A stretch of DNA of 40,232 nucleotides from an uncultured Nitrospiraceae bacterium (GTDB taxonomy: Bacteria; Nitrospirota; Thermodesulfovibrionia; Thermodesulfovibrionales; UBA6898): assembly GCA_963811165.1 (NCBI GenBank), contig CAWEQH010000002.1:1-40232 (forward strand), read 5' to 3'. The notes beneath the pieces were generated by a model. The model was not told where the DNA came from, ran no database searches, and was given only the letters and a program-made list of their open reading frames with translations. Every line of letters begins with the position of its first letter. Within the stretch, counting starts at the first letter, position 1. The translations under genes and the position numbers were made by a program. Below, one piece after another: positions 2,184-40,232 of this stretch.

Positions 2184-3551
2184 TTATTTCTGGCCAAACA
2201 AAATACGATGGATTTTTCTGAGCGGCGAGGTCATTTTCCAGCTCAACGAATCATGTAACGCAGCTATCTGACTATCCTTGCGCCTGATAGCGATGTCAAG
2301 ATATTCCCAAAAAAAGAGAGCGAAAGGGCTGAAACTGCCAAGAAGGTTCAGCTCTGCTTCGGAAACCTCGGGCTTATCACGATAGGTACTGGCCACAATC
2401 TTATACCATTTTTCAGGTGAAAATGGCAGTTTGAGTGTTGTTGGCTTTATCAGGGAAGCGGCTGCATAAAAATTCTGGGCAAGTCTTAATGCGAAGCTTG
2501 TCGACTCCAGGTACTGCAGTCCGTATTTCTCGTCAGGCTCCAAATGACACCCCTCACCCCATTCGTTCCAGGAGTTAATAAAGACGAGCTGTTCATTTCC
2601 CTCGAGATGCTCAAAAGTATGCCAGACAATCTGGGAAAGCCAGAAAGCATACTTTTCAGGCGATGAATTTATAAAGATCGCCGGTGAATCCTTTCGCCGT
2701 GCTGAATTGTCCCATGAAGGGAAAATTCCCTTGAAGAGTTTATACGGAGGTTTGGGCCTGGTGAGCATCTCTTTCATAATGTGATCGTAATCGTAGATCA
2801 AAGGATTGGTTTGCACTGATTCATTGTACCGCGCCACTTCAGAAGTAACGAGCGGCCCAAAGCTTCCCAAATGGGGTGCAAACTCCACAGCCGCATCGAA
2901 GCCAATCTCCTCCGGCGGCGGATCGTATCCCTGAAAACAATTTTCCACCCGGATCAAATAGATGTCGCCAAGCCCCATACGCTTTGCCGTGTCTCGCCAG
3001 AGCTCGGCTGTTTTTTTTGCGTCGGGCAGAAGATTTGTCTTGTAGACGAGGAAAACAGGCCTGCCGTTTATCCTGATATATCTCTCATCCCTGAAGGCTG
3101 GAATCAGACTTTCGATGTGATGGCGATCGTCCTCGTAGCTGTATTTTTGTGCTATCAAGACCTGCTTGTCCTCCCCGTCCCATCGCCTAGTCCAGTTTTC
3201 GTTTGCCCAGCAAAGGCAAAAAGGAAAGTCCGGTTTGCGGGATCTCAGAACTTCATTAAACGGCCATTCCAAAAGGCGCCTGCCATTAAACCAATAATGG
3301 TAGTAACAGAACCCGTAAATACCGTATTCCCTCGCTAAAGCCGCCTGAGCAGTACGAATATCGGACGACCTCAGATCATAGTATCCCAGCTGCCCCGGCA
3401 CATGAGGCTGGTAATGCCCAGGGAACAGTGGGGCAGCTTTTCTCACGTTTGTCCATTCGGTAAACCCCTCGCCCCACCATTCGTCGTTCTCAGGGATGGG
3501 GTGAAACTGCGGGAGGTAAAAAGCAATGAGACGCATGTCAAAATTATCCAC
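2184..3551 (-). CDS. WbsX-family (GH99-like) glycan biosynthesis protein with C-terminal SLSWKMTSPLR tail
   Basis: 455-aa ORF with WbsX signatures IAFYLPQFHPIPENDEWWGEGFTEW, FCYYHYWF, WANENW, PSWDNSAR and INSWNEWGEGCHLEPD. Confidence 0.9.
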   Translation of the reverse strand: MDNFDMRLIAFYLPQFHPIPENDEWWGEGFTEWTNVRKAAPLFPGHYQPHVPGQLGYYDLRSSDIRTAQAALAREYGIYGFCYYHYWFNGRRLLEWPFNEVLRSRKPDFPFCLCWANENWTRRWDGEDKQVLIAQKYSYEDDRHHIESLIPAFRDERYIRINGRPVFLVYKTNLLPDAKKTAELWRDTAKRMGLGDIYLIRVENCFQGYDPPPEEIGFDAAVEFAPHLGSFGPLVTSEVARYNESVQTNPLIYDYDHIMKEMLTRPKPPYKLFKGIFPSWDNSARRKDSPAIFINSSPEKYAFWLSQIVWHTFEHLEGNEQLVFINSWNEWGEGCHLEPDEKYGLQYLESTSFALRLAQNFYAAASLIKPTTLKLPFSPEKWYKIVASTYRDKPEVSEAELNLLGSFSPFALFFWEYLDIAIRRKDSQIAALHDSLSWKMTSPLRKIHRILFGQK

Positions 3552-6500: not shown

Positions 6501-6939
6501 CGTCCTTAAACCTGCCGTTATGACTGAAATGCCAGCATGCCATATTGACCTGTTTGGTGCGGATTTGGTGTTTGACAAACGCCGAGAGATCCTCAAACTT
6601 AAGCTTATGATGGGCGGTCAGAGTGCTAACCCTGTGGTAATGCCACAAGGACATGAGCCGCTCGGCGGGATCACGAAGAATAGCTACGGCCGGATAGTCA
6701 ATGCCTTTATCAAGTATTTCTGTCAGTGAAATATGACCCGATATATAGTTATATTTCCTCAGTTCGTTGCTAGTCGCTTTCAAGAAACGGCGACGGTCTG
6801 CTTCATTTCCGAATCTGACCGAAGCGGCCTTTCCGAAGTGCCTCTCAAGCTCATGGTGCAAAGAGAGCCCCGCAGTCTTGGGGATATGAATGAAGACTAG
6901 GTTTTGTAAGCAACCCCAGCGTTGGCCAGCCGACATCAT
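3544..6939 (-). CDS. Multidomain protein: sulfotransferase (Sulfotransfer_2-like) + GT4/GT-B glycosyltransferase + WbsX/GH99-like + coiled-coil tail
   Basis: 1131-aa intact ORF. The N-terminus has PAPS-binding motifs FIHIPKTAG and LRDPAERLMS. The middle has LLFVGGFAHTPNRDA...PLRFGAGVKGKAIEALYHGVPVVST (GT4-like). The C-terminal part has IAFYLPQYHPIPENDEWWG...NAWNEWAEGNHLEPD and ends in a coiled coil plus SLSWRMTGPLR. Confidence 0.88.
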   Translation of the reverse strand: MMSAGQRWGCLQNLVFIHIPKTAGLSLHHELERHFGKAASVRFGNEADRRRFLKATSNELRKYNYISGHISLTEILDKGIDYPAVAILRDPAERLMSLWHYHRVSTLTAHHKLKFEDLSAFVKHQIRTKQVNMACWHFSHNGRFKDAVDNIQRNHVYVASLEHYDDFLSTLSELLGARLKNVRINVTPKDKPLTVTDAELRILQPLMEEEQKLFAYVRENYELLKHEFIKNTVPRARVVVRNGPVEKKACWPSGREGTQRAAGTFLSADAVDKSTAETNRGKGAKKQTLLFVDYTVPHYDMFAGSRTNFMYLSLLVKMGLNVKFLPADFKRVEPYSSELNDLGIETLDGEWYRNNWESWLRNNGQEIDYVFFYKPDPAIKFLEAVKKYTEATIIYQCSDLHYLRLKREAQVKNDKTILAKAGLYKKKEDFIFSSSDVLLTFSEVEEKIIKEDFPHKRVLTVPLFFYENVPAPDRDFGKRMDLLFVGGFAHTPNRDAVSWFCTEVLPLIRREIPKIVFNVVGANPPKDISALQSKNVRILGKVSEERLKELYKTARLVVIPLRFGAGVKGKAIEALYHGVPVVSTSIGLEGIEGIDEIFAAQDVPAAFASQVVSLYKDEEKLKELSERGSTFIEETFTSQKAAELMSNILFSAGQEAAVKVADSPATKATRESPRLIAFYLPQYHPIPENDEWWGKGFTEWRNVAKAKSLFNGHYQPHIPADLGFYDLRLEETRIAQAKLAREHGIYGFCYYHYWFNGKRLLERPLNDLLKSGKPDFPFCICWANENWTRRWDGEDQQVLMKLEYSEEDDRRHIRELCRIFEDHRYIKINGKPLFLVYRTENIPDPGRTAEVWREEARKAGIGELYLVRVESIGKTDPRAIGFDAAVEFAPDWNNKGPRVIANDKRLNKKLLNWEIPNELCEKNYVHFYDELVSNMMKKPAPDYTWFRCVTPSWDNTARRLDGAHIFLGSTPEKYRNWLKQAIGFTNARLRGDEKIAFVNAWNEWAEGNHLEPDQKFGRSYLEATSRAMKEASGRSDLDPIKTPAALILSKDTDNEQALAVIRKVTDARKRSIAELERQLAVKDILIEQRELDIETREIRISQIIESLSWRMTGPLRRAHEILLKLRRMGRG

Positions 6940-8084
6940 CTTTCCTTTAGCTTCAATATAATTTCGTGCGCCCGGCGCAGAGGCCCGGTCACACGCCAGC
7001 TGGAAGAGTTAAGTAGCTCCTCGACCTGCCTGGTTTTCTCTGCCAGTTGTTCTTTGGTCTTCTCCAGCAGTCTTTCTCGTTCAGCGAGATTCTCCCGGCA
7101 ATCATTTCTTATTACCGACATCATCTTCATTTTGTAATCGTAAATGCATATTGATTGGACGTCGAACAACTTTGCGATTCTTGCTGTTTCCTGTAATGTT
7201 TCATGATTGATATTGGCCGCGTCAGGCCTTTTTCGTAAAAAGACGATCTGCTGGTCCACATCGAGCTGAAAAGTTGTTATATGTTCATATAGGGAACTCC
7301 ATTGATTAACGAGCAGATCGGGTGAAAGAAAAGCCTCTCCATATGTGATTTCAGCATCCGAAGAATAAGGAATAAAGACAAAGCCGGTCTTTCCGTAAAG
7401 ATCCTCTTCCAATTCACAGTCTCGGGAAAAAGATGTCTGCAGCCTATAAAAATATCGCTCAGATTCGGGGGATCTGAGCGGCTCCTTCTGGAGCTGACGT
7501 ATGATATCAAAGCGGCGCGGCTGCCATACAGTCATCGCAAGCATTCCACCGGGCCTGAGGATCCTGAAATATTCATGCATCCATAACGTCACGGCATAAT
7601 ACGAAAGGTGAGTAAAAACGGAATATCCCTCGATTATGTCGAAACAGTCATCTTCATAGGGGGTTAGGGGAAGAGGGTTGATTAATTGAAAGTTCAGTTC
7701 ACCCCTGAAGCAGGAGTTGCAGATGTCAATACTCCGGGGAGATACGTCGCACCCCTTGAGGTTGGATGGAGTTATATCTTTCATGAAAAACCGTATAATC
7801 CTGCCCCAACCGGAGCCGGCGTCGAGCAGCTTTGTCTGTTCGCCTATTTTTCCATTCTGTGACACGTAAGTATCTTTAATGGATTTGTAATACTGATATG
7901 GCTCATGAACATTATTTTCGAGGGTCGATCCAACAAAATAACATTGGGTTGCTTTATCCGGGACAAGAGGAAAAGCAATTCCATCAACCATGGGATCGAT
8001 CGCCGATTTTCTGATTATTTCTTTCCAGTCTTCGTCGGGCGTAGAATTATACTTCCTGAATATTTTTTCAGCATTTGAACTCAT
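6936..8084 (-). CDS. Class I SAM-dependent methyltransferase with C-terminal coiled coil
   Basis: 382 aa with LLDAGSGWGR (motif I), FDIIEGYSVFTHL and RILRPGG. Tail LAERERLLEKTKEQLAEKTRQVEELLNSSSWRVTGPLRR. The stop overlaps the next start (ATGA). Confidence 0.88.
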   Translation of the reverse strand: MSSNAEKIFRKYNSTPDEDWKEIIRKSAIDPMVDGIAFPLVPDKATQCYFVGSTLENNVHEPYQYYKSIKDTYVSQNGKIGEQTKLLDAGSGWGRIIRFFMKDITPSNLKGCDVSPRSIDICNSCFRGELNFQLINPLPLTPYEDDCFDIIEGYSVFTHLSYYAVTLWMHEYFRILRPGGMLAMTVWQPRRFDIIRQLQKEPLRSPESERYFYRLQTSFSRDCELEEDLYGKTGFVFIPYSSDAEITYGEAFLSPDLLVNQWSSLYEHITTFQLDVDQQIVFLRKRPDAANINHETLQETARIAKLFDVQSICIYDYKMKMMSVIRNDCRENLAERERLLEKTKEQLAEKTRQVEELLNSSSWRVTGPLRRAHEIILKLKER

Positions 8085-8126
8085 AATATTTTCCTCTCCG
8101 AACTAGTTCGATGTGTCACCTTCATC

Positions 8127-9212
8127 TCACGACGTTACGACATGCAATGTTTTTTCAAGGTACGCTTCGCCCCACCTCAGATCCGGTTCCAGATAGTTGG
8201 TCTCGGCCCACTCGTTCCAAGACTTGATGAAGACAACCCTCCGGTCATGGCTGCGGGCAGCTACAAGGCCAACAGCTTCACGAAGGTGTTTGGCGTAGAG
8301 CTCGGGTCTAGAGCCTGCAAGGACAAAGCCGTTGACTCCGGAGCGGGGTGTGTTGTCCCAGTTTGGGACCACGCAAGGGTAGAACTCCGGCCGGCGCGTC
8401 TTTTCCGGAAAGGCGTTCCTGACGAAGGTTTCATAGGAGTAGATCTGTGGCAACTCCGGTTTATCGTTGGGGAAAGTCCGGGCAATCTTCTCGTTGAGGG
8501 ACTTGATCCCCTGGTATGCAAGCATTGCCACTGGAGGATTCGTTGTGCAGGCGTCATAGCTCTCCTCAGGTATCTTCCACGGATAATCCGTAATGGCGAT
8601 GAAATAGAATCCCGGCACGCCCTCTTTCTCCGCCAATTTCCGCCAGGTATTTATGAAGAGTCCCGGCTCCCAGAGATCAAAAGGGCGATAGATGCAGAAG
8701 ATATTTCTGTCGTCTATCTTCATGTAACGGGGGTCGCGGAAGGCATCAATCATGGCATAAAAGTGAGAGATGAAATCCTCTACGCCTGGATACGTCTGTT
8801 CGATCAGGATACGATCCGGGCAACCGTGCCAGATGCCCGACCATGTATGGTTGGCCCAGGCAAGACAAAAGGGAAAGTCAGGGTTTCCTGACTTCAGCAC
8901 TTCATTGAAGGGCCTCTCCAACAGTCTTTTGCCGCCGAACCAGTAATGCCAATAGCAGAACCCCTCTATCCCGTATCGATGGGCCAGCTCCGCCTGGGCA
9001 ATCCGGGACTCAGGCACCCGTAAGTCGTAGAAGCTCAGGTCTGCCGGGAAATTCGGCTGCTCGTGTCCGGCGAACAGAGGCTTTGCCCTGGCGACGTTCG
9101 TCCATTCGGTGAATCCTTCGCCCCACCATTCATCGTTTTCCGGGATCGGATGGAACTGGGGAAGATAGAATGCGATCAGACGGGCTTTGAGATCAGAATT
9201 CTGTCGTATCAT
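8127..9212 (-). CDS. WbsX-family (GH99-like) protein, stand-alone
   Basis: 361 aa with IAFYLPQFHPIPENDEWWGEGFTEW, FCYWHYWF, PNWDNTPR and KSWNEWAETNYLEPD. GGGAG RBS upstream. Confidence 0.9.
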   Translation of the reverse strand: MIRQNSDLKARLIAFYLPQFHPIPENDEWWGEGFTEWTNVARAKPLFAGHEQPNFPADLSFYDLRVPESRIAQAELAHRYGIEGFCYWHYWFGGKRLLERPFNEVLKSGNPDFPFCLAWANHTWSGIWHGCPDRILIEQTYPGVEDFISHFYAMIDAFRDPRYMKIDDRNIFCIYRPFDLWEPGLFINTWRKLAEKEGVPGFYFIAITDYPWKIPEESYDACTTNPPVAMLAYQGIKSLNEKIARTFPNDKPELPQIYSYETFVRNAFPEKTRRPEFYPCVVPNWDNTPRSGVNGFVLAGSRPELYAKHLREAVGLVAARSHDRRVVFIKSWNEWAETNYLEPDLRWGEAYLEKTLHVVTS

Positions 9213-25652: not shown

Positions 25653-26387
25653 TCAACCGCCGTATCTCTTTATCGTTCCCGCAACATCGGCGCCGGACTC
25701 ATGAATCTGGCCGTGGTCCAGCCAGACGACTTTGTTGCAGAGGTCTTCTATGTCGGTCAAATTGTGAGAAACGAGAAGCATCGTTGTCCCCTTTTCTTTG
25801 AACGCACGAATTCTTTCGTTGCACTTTCTTTTGAAATGTGCATCGCCCACGGCGAGGATTTCATCGATGATGAGTATCGCCGGATCGACTTCGGTCGCGA
25901 TCGAAAACCCGAGTCTGGCTATCATCCCGGAAGAATATGTTTTAAGGGGGCTGTAAATAAAACCGCTGAGCTCGGAAAAATCCACTATCGCCTCGAACTT
26001 GTTGTCGATCTCCTTTTTTGAAAGTCCGAGGATCGAGGCATTGAGGTATATGTTTTCTGAGCCGGTCAGCTCCATGTCAAAACCCGCGCCGAGCTCTATA
26101 AGAGGTGCGATTTTGCCGCTTACAAAAACGCTTCCCGCTGTGGGCTTCATCACCCCGGCGACTACCTTTAAGAGCGTGCTTTTCCCTGCACCGTTAGCAC
26201 CGATAATGCCGAGGGTCTCCCCTTTGCCGACCTCGAAGCCTACATGCCTCAAGGCCCAGAAATCCTCATAATTGGTCTTCCTGCCTTTTAGTTTCTGTAT
26301 GAGAAATTCCTGGAGCGTCTTCGGTTTTTCCCTGGAAAGACGGTAGCGGACCGCAACGTCCGCAATCTTTATTGAGAGATCACTCAT
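25653..26387 (-). CDS. wzt: ABC transporter ATP-binding subunit for polysaccharide export (no C-terminal carbohydrate-binding domain)
   Basis: GANGAGKST (Walker A), YSSGMIARLGFS signature, IIDEILAVGDAHF and LVSH. Likely start MSDLSIK at 26387. Confidence 0.92.
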   Translation of the reverse strand: MSDLSIKIADVAVRYRLSREKPKTLQEFLIQKLKGRKTNYEDFWALRHVGFEVGKGETLGIIGANGAGKSTLLKVVAGVMKPTAGSVFVSGKIAPLIELGAGFDMELTGSENIYLNASILGLSKKEIDNKFEAIVDFSELSGFIYSPLKTYSSGMIARLGFSIATEVDPAILIIDEILAVGDAHFKRKCNERIRAFKEKGTTMLLVSHNLTDIEDLCNKVVWLDHGQIHESGADVAGTIKRYGG

Positions 26388-26419
26388 CCCCGTGCCCCCA
26401 AATATTTCTCCGCCCGCGA

Positions 26420-27207
26420 TCACAGATGATAAACCACCCTATCTTTATATCTGTCGTAAAAAATCCAGCCTGTGGACAATGCTCCCAGGGCGAACAATGA
26501 CGCGAACAACAGTTTTTCATAAAAAAAAGGGACGTCCATGTATAAGACACCCCTGAAGACGCTTATAAAATAGTACATGGGGTTCAACTCAAAGATTATC
26601 CTGAATCGTTCAGGGACTATCGACTCGGGGAAAAACACAGGGGTCATATACATCATGGCGAGCAGAACGACTTCATAAATGTATTTCGTGTCATGAAAAA
26701 AAACGGTCAGCGTCGAGAGGATGAGTGAAACCCCGTAACAAAATATCCCTACAAGGACGATTACCAATGGAAGCATGATAATACGGCCGCCGACAGAGGT
26801 GCCCGTCAGATAAAAGATTAAAAAAAGAGGGACGAGGGAGAAGACGAAATTGACAACTGCCGACATCACGACAGACAGTGGGAAGATGGCCTTCGGAAGA
26901 TAGATCTTCTTGATGAGATTGCTGTTAGTCAGCAGGCTTACGAGCGCCGATGACGTGCTCTGCGAGAAGAAGTTCCATAGAATGATCCCGGAAAGGAGAT
27001 AGGATGTGTAGTTTTTGGTCGCCACCCGAAAGAGTTCGGAAAAGACCATATTGAGTATCAGCATCATAAACAGAGGGTTAAGCATGACCCAGAGAAATCC
27101 GAGAACAGACCTCTTATAGCGCACTTTAATGTCCCGCATGACGAGGTTCCTCAGGAAGTTCCTTGTATCTGAGGATGTCAAATATTTCGCTTTTATATGG
27201 TCACCAT
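26420..27207 (-). CDS. wzm: ABC-2 permease for polysaccharide export (N-terminus frameshifted)
   Basis: LVMRDIKVRYKRSVLGFLWVMLNPL, IKKIYLP, YMTPVFFP and NPM, with about 6 hydrophobic segments. An alternative frame upstream reads EIFDILRYKE. ATG at 27207 follows a TATAAT box. Confidence 0.9.
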
Positions 27208-27307
27208 GCCTTGCCTCGGTTTGATATTATACAGCATCCGCCCCGTCTTGTTCGCCTATGTCACGTGAATCTGTGAAAGCCCTCCCCGGGCTGTGCTAAA
27301 ATCTTAC

Positions 27308-28465
27308 ATGGCCCAAGAGTCCAAAATGGTTTTATTTTTCGCTGAAGAAGGCCCTGAACCATTGAAGATAGGTATTAATGCAACATTCCTGAGCGAAAAA
27401 CCGACCGGCTTAGGGGTTTTTACACAAGAGATATCCCGCCATATCTCTGCGCTTAACAGGGACTTCGTCGTATTTTCACCGGTCGCCCTGGAAGGAGTTT
27501 CGGAAGTTTTTATCCATAAAGTCCCGCCTTCGGTCAGGGGTTCTCTGAGGTTTCGCGATAACCTGCTGCGGTTTGTGTATCTAAACGGTCTCTTCCCCAT
27601 GCTTTGCCGGAAGAGCAAAGTTGATGTCCTGTTTTGCCCGATGATAGAGTTTCCCTTTGTACCACTTGTCCCGCTTGTTGTGCAAGTCCATGACCTGCAC
27701 CCGATACAATTTGCCGCGCAGTTCAAGCGCGCTGCAGTTCACTTCAGATTATCACTGAAAAGGTTGGAGAAAGTCGCCGGAAGGGTGACCGTCTCGTCCG
27801 AGTTTGTAAAAAAAGTTCTCCTTTCGGCAACAAACTTGGGAGAAGACATGATCGACGTAGTCCCGCTTGCCTATAACCGGGAGAGGTTTTATCCAAGAGG
27901 CCAGGAGGGAAGAGCCGGGTTCCTGGCAAAATATTCCCTCAATGGCCCTTACATCCTTGCGGTGGGAAATCTCTTTCCTTATAAAAATATTGGCAGCCTT
28001 GTTGAGGCATTTCTCAGGATTAAAGGTAAGGTGGCTCATTCATTGGTCGTTGTCGGCAGAAAGGAATTTGCGGCATCGCAATTGGCCGATGACGAACGGG
28101 TACTGTATACCGATTATGTCCCGGACGAAGACCTCCAGAAATTTCACTCCTACGCCGATCTTCTCGTACACCCCTCCCTGAGCGAAGGCTTCGGACTTAC
28201 TCCTCTTGAAGCGATGGCCTGCGGTACGCCGGTCATATGCTCTGACCGCGCATCATTACCGGAAGTAGTCGGAGACGCAGGGCTGCTTTTTGATCCTGAC
28301 GACAAGGCCGCCCTGGGGGAATTGATTCTGAAGGTGCTCGGCAATGAAGGACTGAGAAGAGAACTCTCGGCAAAAGGGCTGAAAAGGGCGCAACTATTTT
28401 CCTGGGAGAAGACCGCCTCGGGCATCCTTGATTCGTGCAGGAAGGCGCTAAAAGAGAACCGGTGA
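27308..28465 (+). CDS. GT4 (group 1) glycosyltransferase
   Basis: VHDLHP, ILAVGNLFPYKN, PSLSEGFGLTPLEAMACGTPVI (EX7E) and FSWEKTA. Start uncertain. Confidence 0.92.
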   Translation: MAQESKMVLFFAEEGPEPLKIGINATFLSEKPTGLGVFTQEISRHISALNRDFVVFSPVALEGVSEVFIHKVPPSVRGSLRFRDNLLRFVYLNGLFPMLCRKSKVDVLFCPMIEFPFVPLVPLVVQVHDLHPIQFAAQFKRAAVHFRLSLKRLEKVAGRVTVSSEFVKKVLLSATNLGEDMIDVVPLAYNRERFYPRGQEGRAGFLAKYSLNGPYILAVGNLFPYKNIGSLVEAFLRIKGKVAHSLVVVGRKEFAASQLADDERVLYTDYVPDEDLQKFHSYADLLVHPSLSEGFGLTPLEAMACGTPVICSDRASLPEVVGDAGLLFDPDDKAALGELILKVLGNEGLRRELSAKGLKRAQLFSWEKTASGILDSCRKALKENR

Positions 28466-29577
28466 AGATACTCCATCTGCTTTACGAAAGCAAGGGCGAT
28501 TATTTCGGGATCGGCGGTGTCGGAACGCGCGCATACGAGATTTACGGCCGCCTCAAAGGCAGGCACGAAATTACGCTTTTGTGCAAAAAATATCCTGGCG
28601 CACGCGACAAAGAGATAGAAGGATTGGCACATATCTTTGCGGGTACCGAAAGCAGGAGTCTCACCAGGACGCTGTTGTCCTACGCATACAGGGCGGCCCG
28701 CTTTGTCTCGGAGAAGGGGAAAGAATATGATCTCATAATTGAGGAATTCTCCCCGGCCGTGCCGACCTTTCTCCATGCCGTTACGAAAAGGCCGGTTGTG
28801 CTGCAGGTCCAGGGATATACGGGGTCCCTTTATTTCAGGAAGTACAACCCCCTCTATTCTTCGGTCCTTTTTCTTTTGGAGCACCTGCGGCCGTTGCTCT
28901 ATTGCAACTTTATATTTATAAATGATGAGACCGCGGGCAGGCTCTTTCTCGATAACAAAAAGCATAAGACGGTCATCCCAAACGGCGTGGCCCCCGAACT
29001 CTTCGGCCTCCCGTTTCGGCGAGGGGATTACATACTTTACCTGGGCCGTATCGACATGTACGGCAAGGGGCTCGACCTGCTTTTGGCTGCGTATACTGAA
29101 TTTTGCAGGTCTTTCGGCAACATCAAACTGGTCGTGGCCGGGGACGGCAGGGACATGGAAAGGTTAAGGTCCGCGGTGACGGCACTGCCGGAGGGCGTAA
29201 GGGGGAACATCGAACTTCCCGGTTGGGTCTCGGGAGTAAAGAAAAGCGAAATTATCGGTGATGCCTCTTTTGTCGTCTTTCCTTCCAGGCATGAGGTCCA
29301 GCCCATATCGGTCCTTGAGGCTATGGCCTGCGGGAAGTCTGTTTTAGTGAGCGATATCCCCGCATGCTCTTTTGTCACGCAAAACGGGGCAGGGGTCTCC
29401 TTCAAGTCAGGGGACCCGGCCTCGCTGGCCCTCTCTATGAAAGGTCTCGCCGAAAGCTCCGCACGTGAAGAAATGGGGATCAAGGGAAGGGAATGGGTCA
29501 AAAATTTCACATGGGACAGGATCGCCGCTCAATATGAGAAGTTCCTTGTCGAGACAGTCGAATCTTACTCGGAGTAA
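28462..29577 (+). CDS. GT4 glycosyltransferase
   Basis: GTG start overlaps the upstream TGA. Motifs IPNGV, YLGRIDMYGKGLDLL, PSRHEVQPISVLEAMACG and FTWDRIA. Confidence 0.9.
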   Translation: MKILHLLYESKGDYFGIGGVGTRAYEIYGRLKGRHEITLLCKKYPGARDKEIEGLAHIFAGTESRSLTRTLLSYAYRAARFVSEKGKEYDLIIEEFSPAVPTFLHAVTKRPVVLQVQGYTGSLYFRKYNPLYSSVLFLLEHLRPLLYCNFIFINDETAGRLFLDNKKHKTVIPNGVAPELFGLPFRRGDYILYLGRIDMYGKGLDLLLAAYTEFCRSFGNIKLVVAGDGRDMERLRSAVTALPEGVRGNIELPGWVSGVKKSEIIGDASFVVFPSRHEVQPISVLEAMACGKSVLVSDIPACSFVTQNGAGVSFKSGDPASLALSMKGLAESSAREEMGIKGREWVKNFTWDRIAAQYEKFLVETVESYSE

Positions 29578-30794
29578 ATGACCGCCTTGATCTTCTCCTT
29601 GTCTTTTATCTTTGCGGCCAATTTTGCCGACTCTTTTCTGTCTGAGGTATTTCCGATCAGCACACGGTAGAAAGTCCCTTTGTCTTTGCCGGAGCCCCTG
29701 ACCACAAAGGCATCGTATCCTTTCCCCTTAAATTTATTCGTAAGCGCAACAGCATTGTCTTCGCTTTTAAACACGCCCAGTTGGACGGAATAAACTGCCT
29801 TCCCTGAAGGTTTCGCTTTAGCCGAAGGCGTGGGCGCCGCTGCGGCAGGGAGAGGCGGTCCTTTTTTCACAGGCATTATGGGTGCCGGGGAAGGCGTTGC
29901 AGGGGCTGTTTTCCCGGCAGACGGGGAAGCCGCAGGGGCCGTTTTATTCTCAGCGACTGTCTGCTGTTTCTGCTGCTCATTTACCGGAGCAGGCGACGGA
30001 GTCGGAGACTGAGCGGGCGCCGGAGGTTGGGCCTTCGGCTTCATCGCGGTACTCAATGGCTTTATGGGGACGGCCTTTTTGGCCCCCATTCCCGGTATCA
30101 GCCCGAGGTAAAAGAGGGCGCCTGCAGCGATTCCGACAATTAAAATGGCCGCTCCGGCGATGACCGCAGGGAGGCTGCTCTTCTTTTTTCTGCGCCTTGA
30201 CGCTTCTTTTGAAATGTAGGCATCCGCAGGCTCCGGAACTTTTTTCTCCCCGTACACAATTTCTTTATCAGGCTCTTCGTCAAGCTCCGGTATCCCCGGC
30301 ATCTGAAAAATCTGAGGCTCGATGTCAGGGGCCTGTTTTACAGCCGGGCGCTCAATGGGGAAGGCAGTCTCTTCGCTTTCAAACGCACGTTCTTTTTCCT
30401 TGACGTGCAGTACGATGGGGGCCTTTGTATCGAGGACTTTCGCGGTCTTTTCGAGGAGCTCCGCGGCGGTGAAAGGGACGGTAAGCACATCGGCAACGCC
30501 GAAGGCCGAAGAGACGGCGGTGTCCACTTTGCTCAACGGAGATGTCAATAACACGAGGGGGACCTTCTGCAATGACTCAAAGCCGTGGATCGTCCGGCAT
30601 ATTTCAAGGCCCTTGTCGCCTGCCTCCTCCGGGTTCACGAATATCAGCGACGGACTGACTTTTTGGGCCATTTCAGCCCCGATATCGCCGCCAGGGACGG
30701 CAAACACGAGATACCCTTCAGTTTCGAGTGTCGACGCGATTATCTGCTCAGTCTCGCTGTCAGCGTCAATTACAAGGACAGTTTTGCTTGCCAT
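29565..30794 (-). CDS. Bitopic membrane protein: pseudo-receiver domain - TM helix - Pro/Ala linker - SPOR peptidoglycan-binding domain
   Basis: Likely start MASKTVLVID (30794, GGGGGA RBS). REC-fold pattern, then RRRKKK and TM segment LPAVIAGAAILIVGIAAGALFYLGLI. A Pro-rich linker leads to SPOR motif YSVQLGVFKSEDNA...YRVLIG. Confidence 0.85.
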   Translation of the reverse strand: MASKTVLVIDADSETEQIIASTLETEGYLVFAVPGGDIGAEMAQKVSPSLIFVNPEEAGDKGLEICRTIHGFESLQKVPLVLLTSPLSKVDTAVSSAFGVADVLTVPFTAAELLEKTAKVLDTKAPIVLHVKEKERAFESEETAFPIERPAVKQAPDIEPQIFQMPGIPELDEEPDKEIVYGEKKVPEPADAYISKEASRRRKKKSSLPAVIAGAAILIVGIAAGALFYLGLIPGMGAKKAVPIKPLSTAMKPKAQPPAPAQSPTPSPAPVNEQQKQQTVAENKTAPAASPSAGKTAPATPSPAPIMPVKKGPPLPAAAAPTPSAKAKPSGKAVYSVQLGVFKSEDNAVALTNKFKGKGYDAFVVRGSGKDKGTFYRVLIGNTSDRKESAKLAAKIKDKEKIKAVIYSE

Positions 30795-30838
30795 CGACAA
30801 GTCCCCCGTTAAGAAATTAAAGGCGTGGAGAGAAGACC

Positions 30839-31869
30839 TCAAAGAGGTTCCCAATATTTTGACGGCATGTCCTGCGCAAGTTTGAGCGCGCCGTTCGGCA
30901 CCTGAAAACAAGGGGTCTTCAACGCACGAGACCTTGCATCAGCCGTCTTCCTTCAATGCGTCCTGGAGATACTCTTTAAGTCCCCTGATCAGACTGCCGC
31001 CGCCAGCCAGGACTATGTTGTTTTTGACCCTGATCTGGAATTCCGGATCGAACCGCGCAATCATCTCGGTCGTTGTCTCGACCAGGGCCGGAAGGATACT
31101 TTCGCAGGCGCGTCTTACCTCATTCTTTATATCGTGCATAACCGGTTTTCCGTCAACGGGGATCTCGACGCGGATATCCTCCGGCGTATCTCTGACGAAG
31201 CTGTAACTCTCTTTGAACTGCCTCACCATATTCTTATTGAACTTCGAATTGGGATATTTCTCGTTCAGGTAGCTGAAAAGCTGATCGTCGATATAATCAC
31301 CGGCATTAAGTATCGTCTTTTGGTCTTCCTCGGCAGGGATAGTGCCGTGCATAATGCAAAAGTCAGTCGTGCCGGCGCCGATATCTATCACCAGAGAGTT
31401 GTTCAGGAGGTTCATACCGTAGGCCACCGCAAAAGGCTCCGTGACAACCAGCAGGGAATGGACGAACTCCGCCACCGCCTTCCGTATCGCAAGCTTGTTC
31501 ACCTTAAGCGTGTCCGCGGGCACCCCGACCACCGCGAATATCTTTTGTTCGCCGGGAAGGGCCGGCGAGCTCAACCAGGTGCCGGATTATCTCTTTTACG
31601 GCCTCTTCGTTCTTATCGATCCCTTCCCTGATAACCCCGTGTTCGAGGGGCCGGCAGAGATCGAGTGAGAGCCTGTTTTGGAGCGCCTCTGCCCCGAACA
31701 GTACGGGCTTGCCGACCACCTGCATCGCGATAAAGTCCCTAGGCCATCCTACAAAGCTCTCTATCCACTCCTTCTTGTCGTTGCTTGCGGAGATCGAACT
31801 CCTGGACGTCCCCAGATCGATCCCGACATACAGGACATCATCTTTTTTCTGCATATCTTTCTGCCTCAT
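30839..31869 (-). CDS. mamK: MamK-family actin-like ATPase (two +1 frameshifts and one in-frame TGA in this sequence)
   Basis: Actin motifs GIDLGTS, EPFAVAYG, DIGAGTTD and LAGGGS. MamK-type segments are SFVGWPRD, LDLCRPLEHGVI, AVVGVPA, HGTIPAEEDQ, AGDYIDD, ACESILP, FDPEFQ, CVEDPLF and GALKLAQDMPSKYW. AAAGGAGA RBS before ATG 31869. Reconstructed length is ~340 aa. The symbol denotes family, not proven magnetosome function. Confidence 0.85.
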
Positions 31870-32917
31870 AGCCCGCTTCTCCTTTATTTAAGTAATCGAG
31901 TATTCCCTTCTCAAGATAATGGGCGATATTTTCCCTGTGGGCAGGGCTTTCCTAACTGCCGTTCCTCCTCCTTATTGCTGAGGCAGGAGACCTCGGCCAG
32001 CACGGCAGGCACGTCCACTCCAAGCAGCACGACAAAAGGCGCCCTCTTGACCCCGAAGTTTTGGGCATTGCCGTTTTCTTCTTTTTTCATGTTAAGGAAC
32101 ATTGTTTTTCTGGATCGCATAGGCAAGTTCTTTCGACTCCTGGGTCTTCGAGTTCTTTTTCACCAAGCTTCTCGATGATCTCTTTGAAGTCGCTCAAGCC
32201 ATACTGCGACCCTGCATTCTCCTGCTCCGCAAGCCGCTGAGTCTTGGAGTCCGCAGATCGGCCCGAATAATAAGTCTCGACGATATTGATCGGCTTGTAA
32301 GGCAGAGAATTGAGGTGGAGAAGCAGGATGGAAGAGTGAGCTTTTGCCGCCATCGCCACTTCCACTCTCCTGTTTAGCGGCACTGTGACATCCTGGTCGC
32401 GGGTCATGAGCACATTATAGCGTCCGTACTTGTCAAGACGTGAGTTCAACCTTTTTGCAATGTCCAGTGTCATGTCTTTTTCCCTGGTGCCCATTTTCCC
32501 CTGCGTGCCCGAGTCTGCCCCGCCGTGTCCGGCGTCTATCATGATCGTCTTCACACCCAGCCCGAAGGTGCGGCTCACCGACATATCGGGATTGGTGATA
32601 AAGGCCTTAAAATCCGCCGGATTCGAGGCATATTTCGGCGCCTGCGGCTGAGGGTTCCTGAACTTCAGCGCACTTGAGGCAAGCTGCTGTTCAGGGAAAA
32701 AAGAGTTCGAAACGTAGGAGCCCTGAACGAAGATGGCTGCCGTCGAGAAAAGCAGTAAAGTCAGAAGAAACTTATTGAAAATAAAAGACTTTTGACGAGA
32801 ACCAGGGCCTGATGGCCCTTCCCGTTCGATCCTCAGGTTATCCTCGTAGACACCCTTCAGGATTTCGTCCTTGATTTTGCAAGATGATTCTTTCTTTTCC
32901 TAGAAGATAGGCATCAT
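31838..32917 (-). CDS. N-acetylmuramoyl-L-alanine amidase (Amidase_3) with N-terminal membrane anchor (frameshifted; start uncertain)
   Basis: Zn-amidase motifs IDAGHGG, EKDMTL, LHLNS, GVKRAPFVVL and AVLAEVSCLSN. An upstream in-frame hydrophobic segment reads FLLTLLLFSTAAIFV. The reconstructed tail RENIAHYLEKGILDYLNKGE...KR* overlaps the mamK-like start. An in-frame TAG lies at 32900-32902. Confidence 0.82.
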
Positions 32918-33220
32918 AACGGTTAGAGACACTTTAACAATTTACAAGAAAAAATTCAATGGTGAAGCTCTCTTATAGCAGGCATGTCACTTGTCCTGTG
33001 CCCTCTGCAGCAAAAAATGTATCTTGTTCCAGGCCATGTTGTTAGCGCCTGTGCTTGCCCGCTATGTATATGTAATAGTAATGGCGCCGAGGGGAACCCT
33101 CTCCCAGGTTTTTCTCGCTCTTGCCTATCCCGAAGCCGAAATTCAAGAAATTCAGTCTCTGTCGTCCATTAATTCATATTCTTCAACTATAGAGTATTCA
33201 TCCTGAATCCGGAAAACAAT

Positions 33221-34271
33221 TTAAATTATGACCTGCATCTTCTTCAGGCCAAAGGCAGTTAGGTTCGTTAAGAGGAAGGATAGCATATAAATGATAATCA
33301 CTAGAAAAGAGAATAACAAATAATCTTCTAAGAGATTTAATTGAAGGTATCTAAAAAGAGGTAAAGTCTGAGTTAATAAAATATGATGAATTAGAAATGC
33401 TCCATAAGAATATACACTGAAAAAATTAACAATCTTCTTAAGAAATAAAATATCAAAAAAAGAGAGAGACACATGATAAACATATGAAAATGCAAATACC
33501 TTCTATAGCCGTCCTATAAAGGATAGGCATATTCGTTTCAACAGCCAAGAAAAAGAATATTCCTGCTATTCCTATTATGAAAACTTTTGACAATCCATGA
33601 GAGGGGTTATAGAAATAAACAAAACTCATGCCAAAGGCAAATTCGACTAACCGAGACAGCGGAAATCTGAGAATTTCCATATTCAGACAATAAAATCTTT
33701 CCGTCAAGATCATTATGAATACACAAAACAGAAAGGTGATCAATTGATTTGTCAAAAATAGACGCCGCAAAAAAGGAAAAATCATATACATGATGATGAT
33801 AAAGCCTAAAAACCATTCTCCCAGCAAATAAAAATTATTTACTCCATACCGCAAAAAACCATCTAGCCCCGCGATTGTAAGCAAGAAAGTTGCCAAATGT
33901 GCTTTTACAGGAACCGCTTGATATTTCAAGAATAATATTGAAAAAGTTATCACATAAGTAACCCAGAAAAGAGGATAAATGGAAAAAAACCTTTTTTTAA
34001 AAAAAGCCTTTGCCTCAAAGGTGTCTTTTGTGCTTACCATTAGTGAAGCTCCCGATAGAATAATGAAGAGTGACACTCCTATAAGTCCCCAAAAAGAGTG
34101 ATCCAAGCTAAACAGCGATTGAGGCCAGAAGACGATATTGTTCGTAATTCCCATTTCCAGGGCATGATAATTGTAATGAAAAATTATTATCAGTAATATT
34201 GAAATCGCTCTTAAAAAGTCAAGGTAGAAAAGTCTTTTCCCCTTCATCGTATGTAGTTTGACATTATCCAC
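33221..34271 (-). CDS. Acyltransferase family 3 (membrane O-acyltransferase), +1 frameshift in an A7 run at 33455-33461
   Basis: LDFLRAISILLIIIFH, GVSLFIILSG, KKRFFSIYP, WFL and SYGAFLIH, with many TM segments. Confidence 0.87.
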
Positions 34272-35283
34272 GAAGAAACTTTTTGATCTTCATTAAGAAG
34301 AAGTCCTTTTCCCAAACAGAGGTCATAATACTGTAAAGGTATTTATTATCGACTTTCACGGTTTTCATAATTTGTTTTCTCTTGCTCATCATGCTTGGAA
34401 AAAAAATGACAACGTCTCTTTTTGCCTTAAGATAAACCCTCAGTTTCCTATGCTTTACTGCAAAATAGATAAACTCAGATATGATGCCAAGGATAAATTC
34501 CGGGAAACACCTCAAGAAAAGAACAAATGAGATATTCTTGATTCTCACAAATTCGCTGTTCCTGAGGGTATAATAAACAGCCATATCGCTCATATGACCT
34601 ATCGATGAGCGAACCTTATGATAGACTACCGCGGTAGGTACGTAGAGGACCTGCCAACCTGCAAGCTGAGCCCTGAAGTTAAGATCGGTATCTTCGTGGA
34701 TCAGGAAAAAATCTTTGTCAAGAAAACCGATCTCATCGAGCATTTTCCGCCTGTAAAGTGCAGCACCTGCACAAGCACCGAAGACATATTCCTGGCTGTT
34801 ATAGTTGAGGCTGGCTTCCCCTTCTCCTCGTTTAAAGCCCTTCAGCGATGTTGAGTATCCGTCACCCGCACTATCTATGTTATCTGTTCCAAAAACAATC
34901 ATTTTAGAAGCGCAGATGCCCGTATCGGGACGCGCTTCCATCACTCTAACAAGATTATCGATCCATTCCCTGCCGGGTTCGGTGTCATTATTAAGGAGGG
35001 CTATATATTCGGCTTCCGTATACGCTAACCCCGCCAGATTACCACCAGCAAAGCCTGAGTTACCGTTTAAGGGGATTAATTTTACAGGATTTAAAGTGCT
35101 CATTTCTAAAAACTTTCGGATTTCATTTATTGAATTATCTGACGAGCCATTTTCAACAATGATAACCTCAAAGTCCTTAAAGCTCTGCTCCTCAATAGCT
35201 CTCAGACAATCTATCGTCAGGTCGCTCCCATTGTAATTGACAATAATTATGCTTACTTTGGGCATCTGCCTTGGTTGATGCAT
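34264..35283 (-). CDS. GT2 glycosyltransferase
   Basis: SIIIVNYNG, ENGSSD, NSGFAGGN, LLNNDT, GACAGAALYR and EDTDL. Confidence 0.92.
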   Translation of the reverse strand: MHQPRQMPKVSIIIVNYNGSDLTIDCLRAIEEQSFKDFEVIIVENGSSDNSINEIRKFLEMSTLNPVKLIPLNGNSGFAGGNLAGLAYTEAEYIALLNNDTEPGREWIDNLVRVMEARPDTGICASKMIVFGTDNIDSAGDGYSTSLKGFKRGEGEASLNYNSQEYVFGACAGAALYRRKMLDEIGFLDKDFFLIHEDTDLNFRAQLAGWQVLYVPTAVVYHKVRSSIGHMSDMAVYYTLRNSEFVRIKNISFVLFLRCFPEFILGIISEFIYFAVKHRKLRVYLKAKRDVVIFFPSMMSKRKQIMKTVKVDNKYLYSIMTSVWEKDFFLMKIKKFLRG

Positions 35284-35333
35284 GTCTGAATAATGAAGAT
35301 AGGGAGCCCGATCTCATTCATACGGGTTTGCAC

Positions 35334-37876
35334 TTAATACGAGGAAATTAAATATGAAACGTCATCGCTTTCGCTCTTAATGAATACCTTAATGATATTA
35401 AAGCCAGTATCTTTAGAAATTACTTCCTTTAAAACTGATCCCCCAACTTTAAACTCCCATCCCGAATTCAGACAATCAGCCCTATCAAAATGCTTTTCCA
35501 CATCCGGACGCGGCATCCCAAGCGTTGCCTTTCCCACAAGTTCAGCATTGGCATAAATGAAGATCTCCTTTACGGGGTCATTGATTCCTTTGCCTATAGC
35601 CCACCCGAAAATGGAGAGACCGCCATCCTGTGTCATCCAAACAGAATCAATGTTTCCCATAGGGTAATGGGTAGGCATCAAATTGTTCATCTGCGGAATA
35701 TTCTTTTTTGTAACCACATAAATATCCTGAAATCCGCGTAATTCTTTCTCCAGAAAATAAATATTGGCAATGCCTATTTTCTTGCCCAATCCCTCCACCC
35801 AATCTCGTTTTACAAAGGTAGATCCATATTCCTTTGAAGACAATGACCTGCTTTCGCTCCAATTAAAAAAGGTGAACCCTGACGGATCGATCTGAAGTCC
35901 TTCAGGGCACAACGATTCTCCATGCGTTGAAAAGATAAGGATTCCGTCATCGTCCAAAACGTTATAGAGAGTCGATAGCCACTCTTCAAAACGGTTTGCG
36001 GGAAGATGAGAAAATAGAGATCCTACATAAATTATCTCAAAGTTTCCGGGAAATACCAGGCGTGAAGGTTCTGTTTCAGAGTAAAACCCATTTACCATAA
36101 AATATTTCTTTTGAAAATCTACCGCGTCCTTGTAGATATCGCTTACCCATACTTTGGTGGACTCGATCTCTTGAATCAAGAACCTCGTAACCCTTCCGTA
36201 GCCGCATGCAAAGTCCAAAAAGGTTCTTACTTCTCGAAACGACTTTCCGCTAAACCGTATAATATTTTCAATGCTCTTAAAACATTCTCTGCCTATTATG
36301 AAATAGAGATATTTTGCCGTATCCTTCTGCTCGGTGCTATTTCTCGAAGTGATATACATCTCATCTTCCGGACTTATTACATCAACAAAAGTATTGGGGT
36401 TCTTCGCTGCCGTTTCGATGTAGGCATTCGCTAATTTTTCCTCTCTGTCAGTGAACAAATGTTGATTGATGACATGCCTGTCATTAGATCCTTTTGTCTT
36501 CTCCATACACTGTCTAATAAATCCTTTTATCTTTTCCATGCATTGTTTGTTAAAAGTCTCTTCCCAGCTCTGGCTCCAATGAACGTTGGCTCCGCTTACA
36601 CGGCTGTCATAATTTTCAATATTCTTTATTGCCCTCACGAGTCCATTTTCTATTCCTTCTGTTGTGGGTTCAGCCGGGATAATATTTGTCGAAGATTTCC
36701 CTAAGACGTTCTGCTGTTTTATTAGCAAAGGTATTTGTTATAACAAGCATCCCCGCTGCAGCCATTTCTAAAGGTACAATGCTTGGGTGTGGTGAAAGCA
36801 TCAAACTAAGGCCAATATCAAACCCCGGCAGCACCTCTTTATATTCGTTCAGACTCAGCTTCGGCAACAGTTTCATAGATACATTGTCATGAAGGATTAT
36901 CTTCTTGTTCTCTCCCTCTACACTGCCGATTCCATAGAACTCCCAGTTATCAACATCAAAATAACCACTTCCGATTACATTGGACAATGCGATCATTCCA
37001 AGCTCAAACATGTTTCGTGATGCATGTTCCTCAGGGCGTGCATAAAACAATAATTTCTTTTTTGCCCTACTCGCCATCTTGGTCTTGTCTAATTGAAATT
37101 TCAGAATCGCGTTCTCAATAGCAACAGACGATTCCTCACCGATTTGATGCCCGTCTCTAAATACTCCTAATCGATTCTGACTGAAATATTCTCTCAGTAT
37201 TTCCGTAGAAAACACCGCGTAATGAGGAAGATTATAGCTTTCCATCGCCAAAGCCGCAAATGATCCCATCGGGTAAAATATAGGTTCGAATTCCTGGCTG
37301 AGATATAGAAAGTTATGAGAATTGAGGTATTTTATAGCGTAATTTGCGATATGAGCCGTCCACCAGCTGGTCGCCATGAAAACATCTTTTCCGCTCACAT
37401 TTATTGGCTTTGACCTGAGGACAGCATATTCAACTTCAACATAATCAAAGAACCCTTCAAGTCCTTCGTATTTCTTAATCTCCTCTTTCCACACATCGGG
37501 TTCAAACTTACACTCATCGATAATTACCATTCTGACTTTAAATCCTTCTGCTGTCAGCTTTTTCGCAAGATTAAAGACCGATAGATATCCACCAAAGAAA
37601 TACTTAAAATTGATGATGGAAATCAGCATATTCACCCGTTCTGGTTCGCTGTCCACAATTTCAAGATTTAAGGGTGCAATCTTCTGTCTGATGAAATTGA
37701 TGACAGGATAATCCCGAAACGCTGAAGAATCTGCAGAATGATTTGTGCTGTCCACCACTTTTTCCCTTGCCTTCTTTAAGAAAAGCCCTGAATCCGTAAT
37801 TTCTTATATATAAAAAAGATTTTTGTGCAGTTAGTTTATTGAATAGCCTCAAAAATTTCAATACAGTTTCCGCCAT
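35334..37876 (-). CDS. Probable fusion of a WsaF-like GT-B glycosyltransferase and a class I methyltransferase (two +1 frameshifts, ~37765 and ~36695)
   Basis: ATG 37876 overlaps the upstream gene end. The GT part has FFGGY, ATSWWTA, QEFEPIFYP, FYARP and LSLMLSPHPSIVPLEMAAAG. It continues into EISTNIIPAEPT...WSQSWEETF, then FLDFACGYGRVTRFL and SLFSHLP (methyltransferase). Confidence 0.75.
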
Positions 37877-40232
37877 TGATCTGCTTCTCCTACGATTTTC
37901 TTAATGCATCTATAATATGCATTCATTAATCTATTTGCAAAAATACTCTTAAGCAGCAGGGAATCCATCCCAAGCGTGGTACAATCCTTATTAAGGAGTT
38001 TATCCTTTACGATCTGAAGAAAGATGCTTAACACTGACTTTTCAAAGCTGACAAATCTCTCTATGATTCTTCTTTTTTCCCCTGAAACATTGCTGCAACG
38101 CAGACGGAGCACATGAGCAATCATAACCCTTCGGGGATAATGATTATAATATTCGGCTTGATTATGCTTCAGCAAAGCTAAAATATCATTGAACCACCTT
38201 CTTATCGTTAACCTTTCTTTAAGGTTCTTCAGAAGTTCGATAAGTTCTTCCTGTGAGACCTTATTCTGTTTGACATAATGGCCCAACACATTACCTGAAT
38301 GCTGATAGTAATCATAAAGGGGTTTATCGTGATATTTTATTTTTCCCATAGCAAGTGCAACGCAGGCAATAAAATGATCATGATAAAAATCCCCTATTTT
38401 CGCAGGAAAGGGCAATAAGACATTCAGAAGCTCCTTCCGAAAAAGAGAGGCTGCTCCGGTAACCGTATTGGTAAGTATGAGAAGATCAAGTTCACTGAAA
38501 TTATTCTTCCTTGTCGTCCAATACGTATTGTATATAACGTTCCCTTCTGTATCCACAATATTCATATCGGAATACACTAAAGTTGTATCCTTATCAAAAA
38601 GAGCCATCAGGGTAGATAACTTGTCCTCATGCCAGTAATCATCCTGATCAGCGAGGGCCACAAAAGATGTCCCTTCCGGGACATAGGACAGACACCTCTC
38701 AAAGTTATGATAGAATCCCAGATTAGATGGGTTTCTGTATAATATAAAGCGCCTGTCTCCTGCAACAATATCTTTAACCTTTTCAAATATTTCAGGTTCA
38801 GAACAATCATCATTAATTATGCATACCCATTTTTTGTATGTCTGGCATATGATTGAATCTATCTGTTTCTTGAAGTATCTCAATGAAGGATTATAAGTAG
38901 TCATGCATATGGCAATTATAGGCTGCCCATATGACTTATCATCTATAGTGCGCATGGACGATGCAGCCGGGCTCATTTCCGGCTCGAGAGTGAGGCTTCC
39001 CATTGAAGATGTACATTTGTTTCCATTATAAAGCTCTGTTCTAATATCAAGGGTTATCTGGCGTGGAGAATCGATTTTAGTAAAGGGAATGATTACCCAA
39101 AACTTAGTCATGATACTATTTCCTTTACCATCTTCTTGAAAATGTGTCGGGGGGCCACTATCTTTAAGAAAAGAAAAGTGAGAAACCGGATACTCACCAC
39201 CGGCAGCAAGGACAACAATTTTTTTTACCCATTGAGACGGATGGTAACACCAGCCATGCAAAAAAAAGGCATTCCCTGCACCAACAATAAACGGCATTGA
39301 AAGGTTAGTTTCTATATGATAGGTCAGCTTCTCCTCAATAAATGTCTTTTTTTTTTCATCAGATTTGCCGGGATAAATACTATGAGATCAAAAACCCTCT
39401 TAACGAAATGTCTCCTAATAGAATTCGCAGGTAGAAGTTTGTCCCGGATCCTGTAAAATAGCGACAACGTCTTCCATCCGCGTGAGCTATAAATGCTCTG
39501 CAGAAGAAAATCTTTATCCTTTACTAAAGACTCAATGTTGGTTATTCGCTGGTCTCTTTGATCAATATGGTATGCGAGGTTGGTAATATACTGGTCTTTT
39601 CCCTTTATCACATCCCGCAGATTTTTCGCATAAACTTCAAGCTCTTTTATATGCCTACCTTTATCATTTTTATCTTTTTCAAGCTCCCTCAAATATACAT
39701 TCTGTTCTCTGAGAGCTTCAAGATTCTTGACGTGAACATCCTGATGACGGGCATGACATTCTCTTAAAATATTATCCATTCGCCCCTTGAAATGCATCCA
39801 TGAGCTCCAACTGACATATTCTTTGTTTCTTTCGAAAACTATAGAAGCAAACTTCTGGATGTCATATCTGCTTTCAAGGTAATTCTCGATGGAAGCAGCG
39901 TAAATATTATATTGGCAAGTAACTTTCTTCAGGTGCAGGAATTCATGGTTTCTTGAAATTAGAGTAAGCATTCGCCAATCTTCGTGTGTATGAAGATCCT
40001 CTTCGAACCGCCATTTGGTGAGCACATTCTTCTCAAACATAAGACACATGAACGGGATGTAGTTTTCGAACAATAACCTTTCCCTGTCAAAGTCCTCGGA
40101 ATACAGCCTTTCCTTTTTCTTGAGAACATATTCATCCGGAGCTGCTTGGATTTCATGAAAGGCGAGATACGAATCGGCATAAGCAACTTTATAATAATTG
40201 CCCTTGCTGAGTTCGCTGACAAGTGTATCAAC
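37858..40232 (-). CDS. Large multidomain GT2 glycosyltransferase (GT2 - coiled coil - GT2), 5'-truncated by the window, frameshift at a T10 run at 39347-39356
   Basis: The frame is open from the window end (LLFENYIP, HEDW), through a coiled coil and YSSRGWK. A shift at the homopolymer gives KKTFIEEKLTYHIETNLS-MPF, joining the 479-aa GT2 ORF (ICMTTYNP, DDCS, ALADQDDYW, NTVTGA, HD). Confidence 0.78.

Follow-up and report, generated by a model that had tools for sequence, protein, structure and literature searches.

A MamK-family actin paired with a peptidoglycan amidase in a non-magnetotactic Nitrospirota bacterium

What does an actin of the MamK family do in a bacterium whose genome holds no magnetosome gene cluster? 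To our knowledge, the jobs known for bacterial actins make a short list, and those of MamK-type actins amount to one. The question is raised by a stretch of 40,232 nucleotides (the window hereafter) from an uncultured Nitrospiraceae bacterium (GCA_963811165.1, contig CAWEQH010000002.1), which corresponds to contig C2 in an assembly of 3.66 Mb at 95% completeness. Three co-oriented genes on the minus strand encode, in this order, an Amidase_3 enzyme of the AmiA/B/C type (31838..32917, with its start near 32917), a MamK-family actin (30839..31869, 342 residues when read through) and a bitopic protein of 409 residues (29565..30794) with a receiver domain, a transmembrane (TM) helix and a SPOR domain. 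This layout had been described in the original prediction and is confirmed: the amidase stop codon (ending at 31838) falls within the actin start region, the last amidase codons overlapping the actin start, and the SPOR gene starts 44 bp past the actin stop. As the amidase and actin frames are broken in the window, the intact operon on contig C3 of the same assembly (amidase of 349–352 residues, actin of 342, SPOR protein of 406) was used as the query for searches. On balance we lean towards a reading in which the MamK-type filament would bind an N-terminal helix of the amidase and so set where stem peptides are cut, the SPOR protein feeding back where it is present.

Whether the synteny recurs in other genomes was a check proposed in the original prediction; its amidase-actin part is widespread. 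Among 201 genomes of the class, 44 passed the cut-off of the NCBIfam MamK family (NF040964), and they split cleanly into two score groups. The high group consists of 17 genomes at 455 bits or more, with MamM over its cut-off in 16 and in pieces in the last. The low group consists of 28 genomes at 359–441 bits, counting that of the window (G000) and adding one with a truncated copy of 359 bits. MamM exceeded its cut-off in none of these 28 carriers and in none of five carriers from other phyla. An amidase gene lies immediately upstream of the actin, mostly overlapping its start, in all 27 low-score class loci, and in none of 13 magnetosome-type MamK loci taken from 12 of the 17 high-score genomes. 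Scanning all species gave 80 loci, with some genomes in common with the class set. The amidase-linked type accounts for 71 of them, of which five are cut upstream; the amidase is present in 66/66 of those having upstream DNA and in 0/9 other MamK-like loci (eight from Planctomycetota, one from Geobacteraceae). According to their record titles, the carriers belong to Nitrospirota, Desulfobacterota, Acidobacteriota with Aminicenantes, Rokubacteria and Sumerlaeota. For the Acidobacteriota phylum, 301 genomes sampled independently and searched with the actin alone gave 25 carriers, and the amidase is upstream in 25/25. Of 301 genomes of a Desulfobacterota phylum, 15 have a MamK-type actin: three are paired with the amidase, eight belong to another clade and four are others. 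The eight (L191–L195, L197, L199 and L200), seven of which pass the MamK cut-off, lie behind a long low-complexity Glu/Gln-rich gene, with no amidase.

The actin is of the MamK family and is not an MreB, as the original prediction had read from its motifs, which are all present in the sequence. The C3 actin scores 409.2 bits against the MamK cut-off of 400, 233 bits against 530 for the BeeR family (NF053558) and 92 bits against 293 for MreB. Its monomer model (pLDDT 89.9) matches the MamK filament subunit 5ljv with a TM-score of 0.92 and an rmsd of 1.5, MamK ranking ahead of BeeR and MreB in the structure match. The ATPase motifs (phosphate 1, EP, phosphate 2 and adenosine) are conserved across 64 aligned actin relatives. 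Its identity to the magnetosome-type MamK proteins of the class is 40–46%, and close relatives carry the labels Nitrospirota and Thermodesulfovibrionales. We infer that the actin has no membrane anchor of its own, because its first ten residues are polar and modelled with low confidence.

Trees were computed with FastTree (110 rows) and with IQ-TREE (LG+G4) on a hand-chosen subset of 48 rows rooted on BeeR-like rows, ParM and FtsA being left out. The amidase-linked actins form a single clade (support 98/87 in the IQ-TREE tree), separate from the Nitrospirota magnetosome MamK clade (100/100), and 24 positions are kept in this clade and rare among other MamK-type actins. The group of the MamK-like protein of AMB-1 (P0277) also stands elsewhere, among many other MamK-type lineages. 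The actin has the MamK fold but stands in its own supported clade. MreB is far from it in the tree, the genome has its own mreB gene (C1:88913), and the window actin shows no mreBCD context. Because the backbone of the tree is open, and an AU test leaves sisterhood between the amidase-linked clade and Nitrospirota magnetosome MamK standing (p-AU 0.26), the actin may or may not reflect an ancestral role of MamK, as suggested in the original prediction.

The same searches returned other MamK-type proteins of unusual build or origin. In P0157, which has 768 residues, an FtsZ/tubulin domain is fused ahead of a MamK-type actin domain; this is a single record and may be an assembly or gene-calling join. 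Proteins of 520–1230 residues (P0125, P0127, P0129, P0130, P0133–P0136, P0139, P0141, P0142, P0144, P0148 and P0153) end in a MamK-type actin, preceded by a long N-terminal part that has no Pfam match, and the four of them included in the tree group in a single clade. The P0152 cluster contains MamK-type actins labelled ANME-2 and other Methanosarcinales archaea.

The absence of magnetosome genes, first noted for the surroundings of the actin, extends to the whole genome. No MamA, MamB or MamM near family level was found in it, and the Mam and Mad proteins of three magnetotactic relatives gave either no match or only generic TPR, CDF and HtrA homologs. Since a genuine MamB of Nitrospirota reaches just 249 against the cut-off of 350, which is too strict for this phylum when used alone, absence was rechecked by tblastn. 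A full mam cluster lacking only mamK was not found either. By its gene content, the window genome is that of a non-magnetotactic Nitrospirota bacterium of Thermodesulfovibrionia type; its actin neither accompanies mam genes in a magnetotactic genome nor falls inside the magnetosome MamK clade. Two genomes of the same family as the window, G151 and G167 (loci L077 and L078), have a magnetosome gene cluster yet no fliF match. As to the resident machinery, the window genome keeps MreB, FtsA, PilM, two other Amidase_3 genes and three other SPOR proteins, and the module is therefore an add-on. Both ftsA and pilM are found in 28/28 carriers, and for ftsA this led us to reject the actin as an FtsA replacement.

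What, then, does the amidase contribute? H128, E143, H197 and E302, which serve as zinc ligands and catalytic Glu, are invariant throughout an alignment of 70 full-length homologs. So is E229 (numbering of the C3 copy), which aligns with E167 of E. coli AmiA; in the window, the Glu-Asn of this blocking helix lies at 32216..32221 on the minus strand. Glu167 is the autoinhibitory latch of the AmiA blocking helix (PMC10268282; this and the papers cited below are drawn on for the parts of their text covered by our search). Because the latch residue is invariant, the amidase is predicted to be latched off and to need an activator. The genome holds one M23 gene, which is away from the operon.

The N-terminus of the amidase is arranged as a conserved helix, a variable basic stretch, a hydrophobic segment and a variable linker. 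The helix (32822..32878, minus strand; consensus ILRGVYE(E/D)NL) is predicted to be cytoplasmic and is a candidate actin-binding tag. Its Asn is invariant in 70/70 amidases, and its core is conserved across phyla, which the linker and the membrane segment are not. The hydrophobic segment (32712..32772, minus strand), a predicted N-in anchor, has an uncharged stretch with a median of 20 residues and is followed by a linker with a median of 59. AmiA and AmiC are exported by the Tat pathway. For the amidase described here, Tat export was rejected, the motif being found in 7/70 sequences and a long conserved region standing ahead of the hydrophobic segment; nor does the enzyme show the features of an AmiA/B/C enzyme exported in soluble form to the periplasm. 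Because a Tat-like motif is this rare, the hydrophobic segment is predicted to be an N-in membrane anchor with the helix in the cytoplasm. With a profile of the N-terminus, all 28 carriers matched at E<1e-7, a level reached by no other genome among the remaining 173 of the class; one further genome reached 9.5e-4, and the 17 magnetotactic genomes gave no match.

Several points weigh against the reading favoured here. The profile was built from the amidases of the carriers, so that the information lies solely in its lack of matches among the other 173 genomes. The helix has drifted in Acidobacteriota, where 13 of 25 match at E<0.01 and five more by eye, and it is weakly amphipathic (median moment 0.23). 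It could bind the membrane or another protein, and cleavage may occur behind the hydrophobic segment. The surroundings of the pair show no conserved activator gene, and there is no cultured carrier among the names returned for homologues. Binding of the helix and the topology of the amidase are predictions from sequence. As to the reach of the searches, a single-sequence search with the first 48 residues returned nine close amidases among 11 candidates and covered lengths of 191–611 only, so that it was blind to other helix carriers, and an Atlas search with the amidase N-terminus gave no usable match.

The third protein, which is intact in the window, begins with a domain (30794-30447, minus strand) that had been called a receiver. 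The domain is indeed there, but it lacks the phospho-acceptor Asp after the third strand; most of the 48 homologs have Asn, Lys or Arg in its place. It is thus not a phosphorylated response regulator, and its sequence makes it likely that this pseudo-receiver is a binding module. An acidic linker, the membrane helix (~30164-30096) and a Pro/Ala-rich linker lead to the SPOR domain (29795-29577, minus strand like the rest). The latter keeps Gln335, Phe339 and Arg374, which correspond by motif to Q270, F274 and R309 of RlpA (PMC6895207). The glycan-binding Gln is found in 48/48 rows at its column and the Arg is also kept, so that the protein combines an FtsN-like bitopic layout with the glycan-binding residues. 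Two unnamed Atlas clusters have the same receiver-TM-SPOR layout.

Could this protein, rather than the amidase, be what chiefly ties the filament to the wall, with the amidase just making the SPOR ligand? The original prediction favoured such a link. The FtsN-like layout and the conserved pseudo-receiver are in its favour, as is the presence of the gene after the actin in 18/25 class loci having downstream DNA and in 6/10 Desulfobacterota-type loci. In at least three Acidobacteriota loci, among downstream genes scanned in part, a different TM-SPOR gene follows the actin, which suggests repeated recruitment. However, the receiver-SPOR form is missing from 25/25 Acidobacteriota, 2/2 Rokubacteria and 7/25 class loci, and the amidase stays in all of them. 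The amidase itself spans the membrane by a predicted segment and carries a conserved tail, predicted to be cytoplasmic, which would be left unexplained. We therefore regard the SPOR protein as an unlikely main link. Because its gene is missing from many operons and the amidase is constant, the core of the module is the amidase with the actin, and the receiver-SPOR protein is an accessory of Nitrospirota and Desulfobacterota. Other third genes were also seen. In some Nitrospirota loci (L105, L108 and L109, two of them scanned), a gene of the Ysc84 family ("Las17-binding actin regulator" in Pfam) replaces the SPOR gene, and receiver-PilZ, PilZ and SPOR-TPR genes occur elsewhere (L050:7236-7988, L215:210-1328 and L059:9300-10256).

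The mechanism that we propose, in which the filament holds the amidase, builds on the directly established pairing, separate clade, MamK fold with ATPase motifs, intact zinc site and latch, and co-occurrence of helix and actin. The actin would polymerise with ATP and would be tied to the inner membrane via the amidase, whose cytoplasmic N-terminal helix the filament would grip, thereby placing wall cutting. The amidase would remain latched off until an activator from outside the operon released the latch. In Nitrospirota and Desulfobacterota, the pseudo-receiver/SPOR protein would bind freshly denuded glycan. FtsN binds FtsA, and in the same manner the SPOR protein could feed back on the filament via its pseudo-receiver. 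The module would act beside the normal elongation and division machines, and local envelope shaping or marking appears the most likely task. A bolder form of this mechanism, which we put forward tentatively, is a self-reinforcing patterning of the wall, in which a dynamic MamK-type filament would grip the latched amidase across the membrane and draw a track of denuded peptidoglycan for the SPOR protein to follow.

Among known systems, the closest working precedent for the binding of an amidase tail by the actin would be, by analogy, BacA-LmdC (PMC10945521), in which the bactofilin BacA binds the 38-residue cytoplasmic tail of the bitopic M23 hydrolase LmdC. Both cases have adjacent genes, a membrane-spanning hydrolase with a short conserved cytoplasmic tail and the character of an accessory morphogenetic module. 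They differ in that an ATP-binding actin, a latched Amidase_3 and a predicted helix are found here, where the other system has a bactofilin, an M23 enzyme and a beta-hairpin; binding is here a proposal. The FtsA-FtsN-AmiA/B/C divisome (PMC10268282, PMC6895207) likewise has an inner actin, a bitopic SPOR protein and a latched amidase that makes the SPOR ligand. In the window genome, however, FtsA is separately present, in the amidase of the module a membrane segment and a predicted cytoplasmic tail take the place of a Tat signal or AMIN domain, the SPOR protein carries a pseudo-receiver, and the distribution of the module is patchy. MamK of Magnetospirillum (PDB 5LJV, 5LJW and 5JYG) shares the fold, the ATPase motifs and 40–41% identity with the window actin, which differs from it by its own clade with clade-specific positions, the lack of mam genes and a fixed amidase partner. 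BeeR (PMC11929497; PDB 8R2N) is another MamK relative of non-magnetotactic bacteria whose function is given as undefined in the covered part of that source; the window actin is far below the BeeR cut-off, has a 10-residue N-terminus in place of a 30–50 residue extension and stands on a separate branch.

Two further explanations give the pair another task, and we consider both doubtful. The module could make an opening in the wall through which a machine for pili, gliding or secretion crosses the envelope, or set motility polarity in flagella-less cells. This would fit with fliF being found in 4/28 carriers versus 120/173 other genomes, and with PilZ genes after the actin at two loci. However, the flagellar pattern runs largely by lineage, and since kin are not independent a Fisher test overstates it. 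For type IV pili, pilM is near universal (28/28 versus 151/173), and no machine genes are conserved beside the pair. It is about as improbable that the module is an extra daughter-separation device working at the septum beside AmiC and FtsN. The enzyme is of the AmiA/B/C type with its latch, SPOR domains gather at septa (PMC6895207), and an amidase with a SPOR protein also sets polarity in S. meliloti (PMC7822825). Against this, the genome already has FtsA and further amidases and SPOR proteins as listed above, and the module is missing from 173/201 relatives and never lies within a division cluster. Finally, the idea that the gene is a magnetosome mamK that was displaced or left behind, or that its product substitutes for MreB or FtsA, is largely refuted and very improbable: the MamK cut-off is passed (409 versus 400 bits), magnetotactic genomes occur in the same family (G151 and G167) and sisterhood with Nitrospirota MamK is not rejected, but MamM over its cut-off is lacking in all the carriers counted above, the mam proteins of a same-family magnetotactic genome match only generic homologs or nothing in G000, identity to magnetosome-type MamK is 40–46%, and MreB and FtsA are both present.

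Is the window copy a working one? Its actin, 87% identical to the intact C3 copy, has two one-base insertions (~31551 and ~30900) and an in-frame TGA (30939-30941), and its amidase has about a dozen indels. Compared with C3, all indels in the two genes are insertions on the window side. Related contigs from two other studies (~96–99% identical) do not have the additional base at 31554, nor those at five such sites in the amidase, and for this reason the frameshifts are probably assembly errors. These contigs covered the window only in pieces, and none spanned the in-frame TGA, which may be a genuine pseudogene lesion. A true pseudogene is disfavoured by the one-directional insertions, the lack of the extra bases in related contigs and a strong synonymous bias: over 202 codons, the window and C3 actins differ by 83 synonymous and 25 non-synonymous changes.

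The three copies of the module in the assembly are strain haplotypes of one locus, and paralogy within the genome was rejected. The window pairs with C1:570812-610858 at 96.5% identity, C3 is the third haplotype, and the module alleles differ among the three. DNA comparison with C3 delimits a divergent allele block (30579..32947, no strand assigned) that covers the amidase, the actin and the first 70 residues of the receiver; its identity is ~79% (~21% different), and its flanks are 99–100% identical. The sequence suggests that this block is a working unit exchanged between lineages, although it may be an assembly chimera. A scan for promoters and terminators gave counts at chance level (2 versus 2.3 and 5 versus 5.5). 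The module is embedded in a variable surface-polysaccharide region (window 2184-9212 and 25653-40232), with three WbsX glycosyltransferase genes, GT2 and GT4 genes, WsaF, methyltransferases and an ABC-2 exporter. Between 13135 and 23401 there is a minus-strand run of genes for a subtilase, a SCO1/SenC protein and a weak match to multicopper oxidases, with several frameshifted open reading frames without a Pfam match.

No description of a MamK-type actin paired with an amidase was found in a literature search that left supplements and most subscription papers outside. MamK homologs have been described outside magnetotactic bacteria, BeeR being one such branch: among 2798 MamK-like hits in metagenomes, just 227 shared their scaffold with other mam genes (PMC7449369). 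The covered passages of PMC10653835 treat magnetosome actins solely. The module is apparently real, conserved and undescribed. A practical consequence is that mamK alone overcalls magnetotaxis: in the class, 27 of the 44 genomes over the MamK cut-off belong to the amidase-linked clade without MamM. As a two-gene module of an actin and a hydrolase, it also offers a direct and cheap test of a new job for a MamK-type actin, and a way into the question of how MamK was recruited to magnetosomes. If the bolder form of the mechanism is true, bacterial actin systems would gain a new class, spread over five phyla or more and apart from the elongasome and the divisome, and the module would be a living example of the work of a MamK-type actin without magnetosomes.

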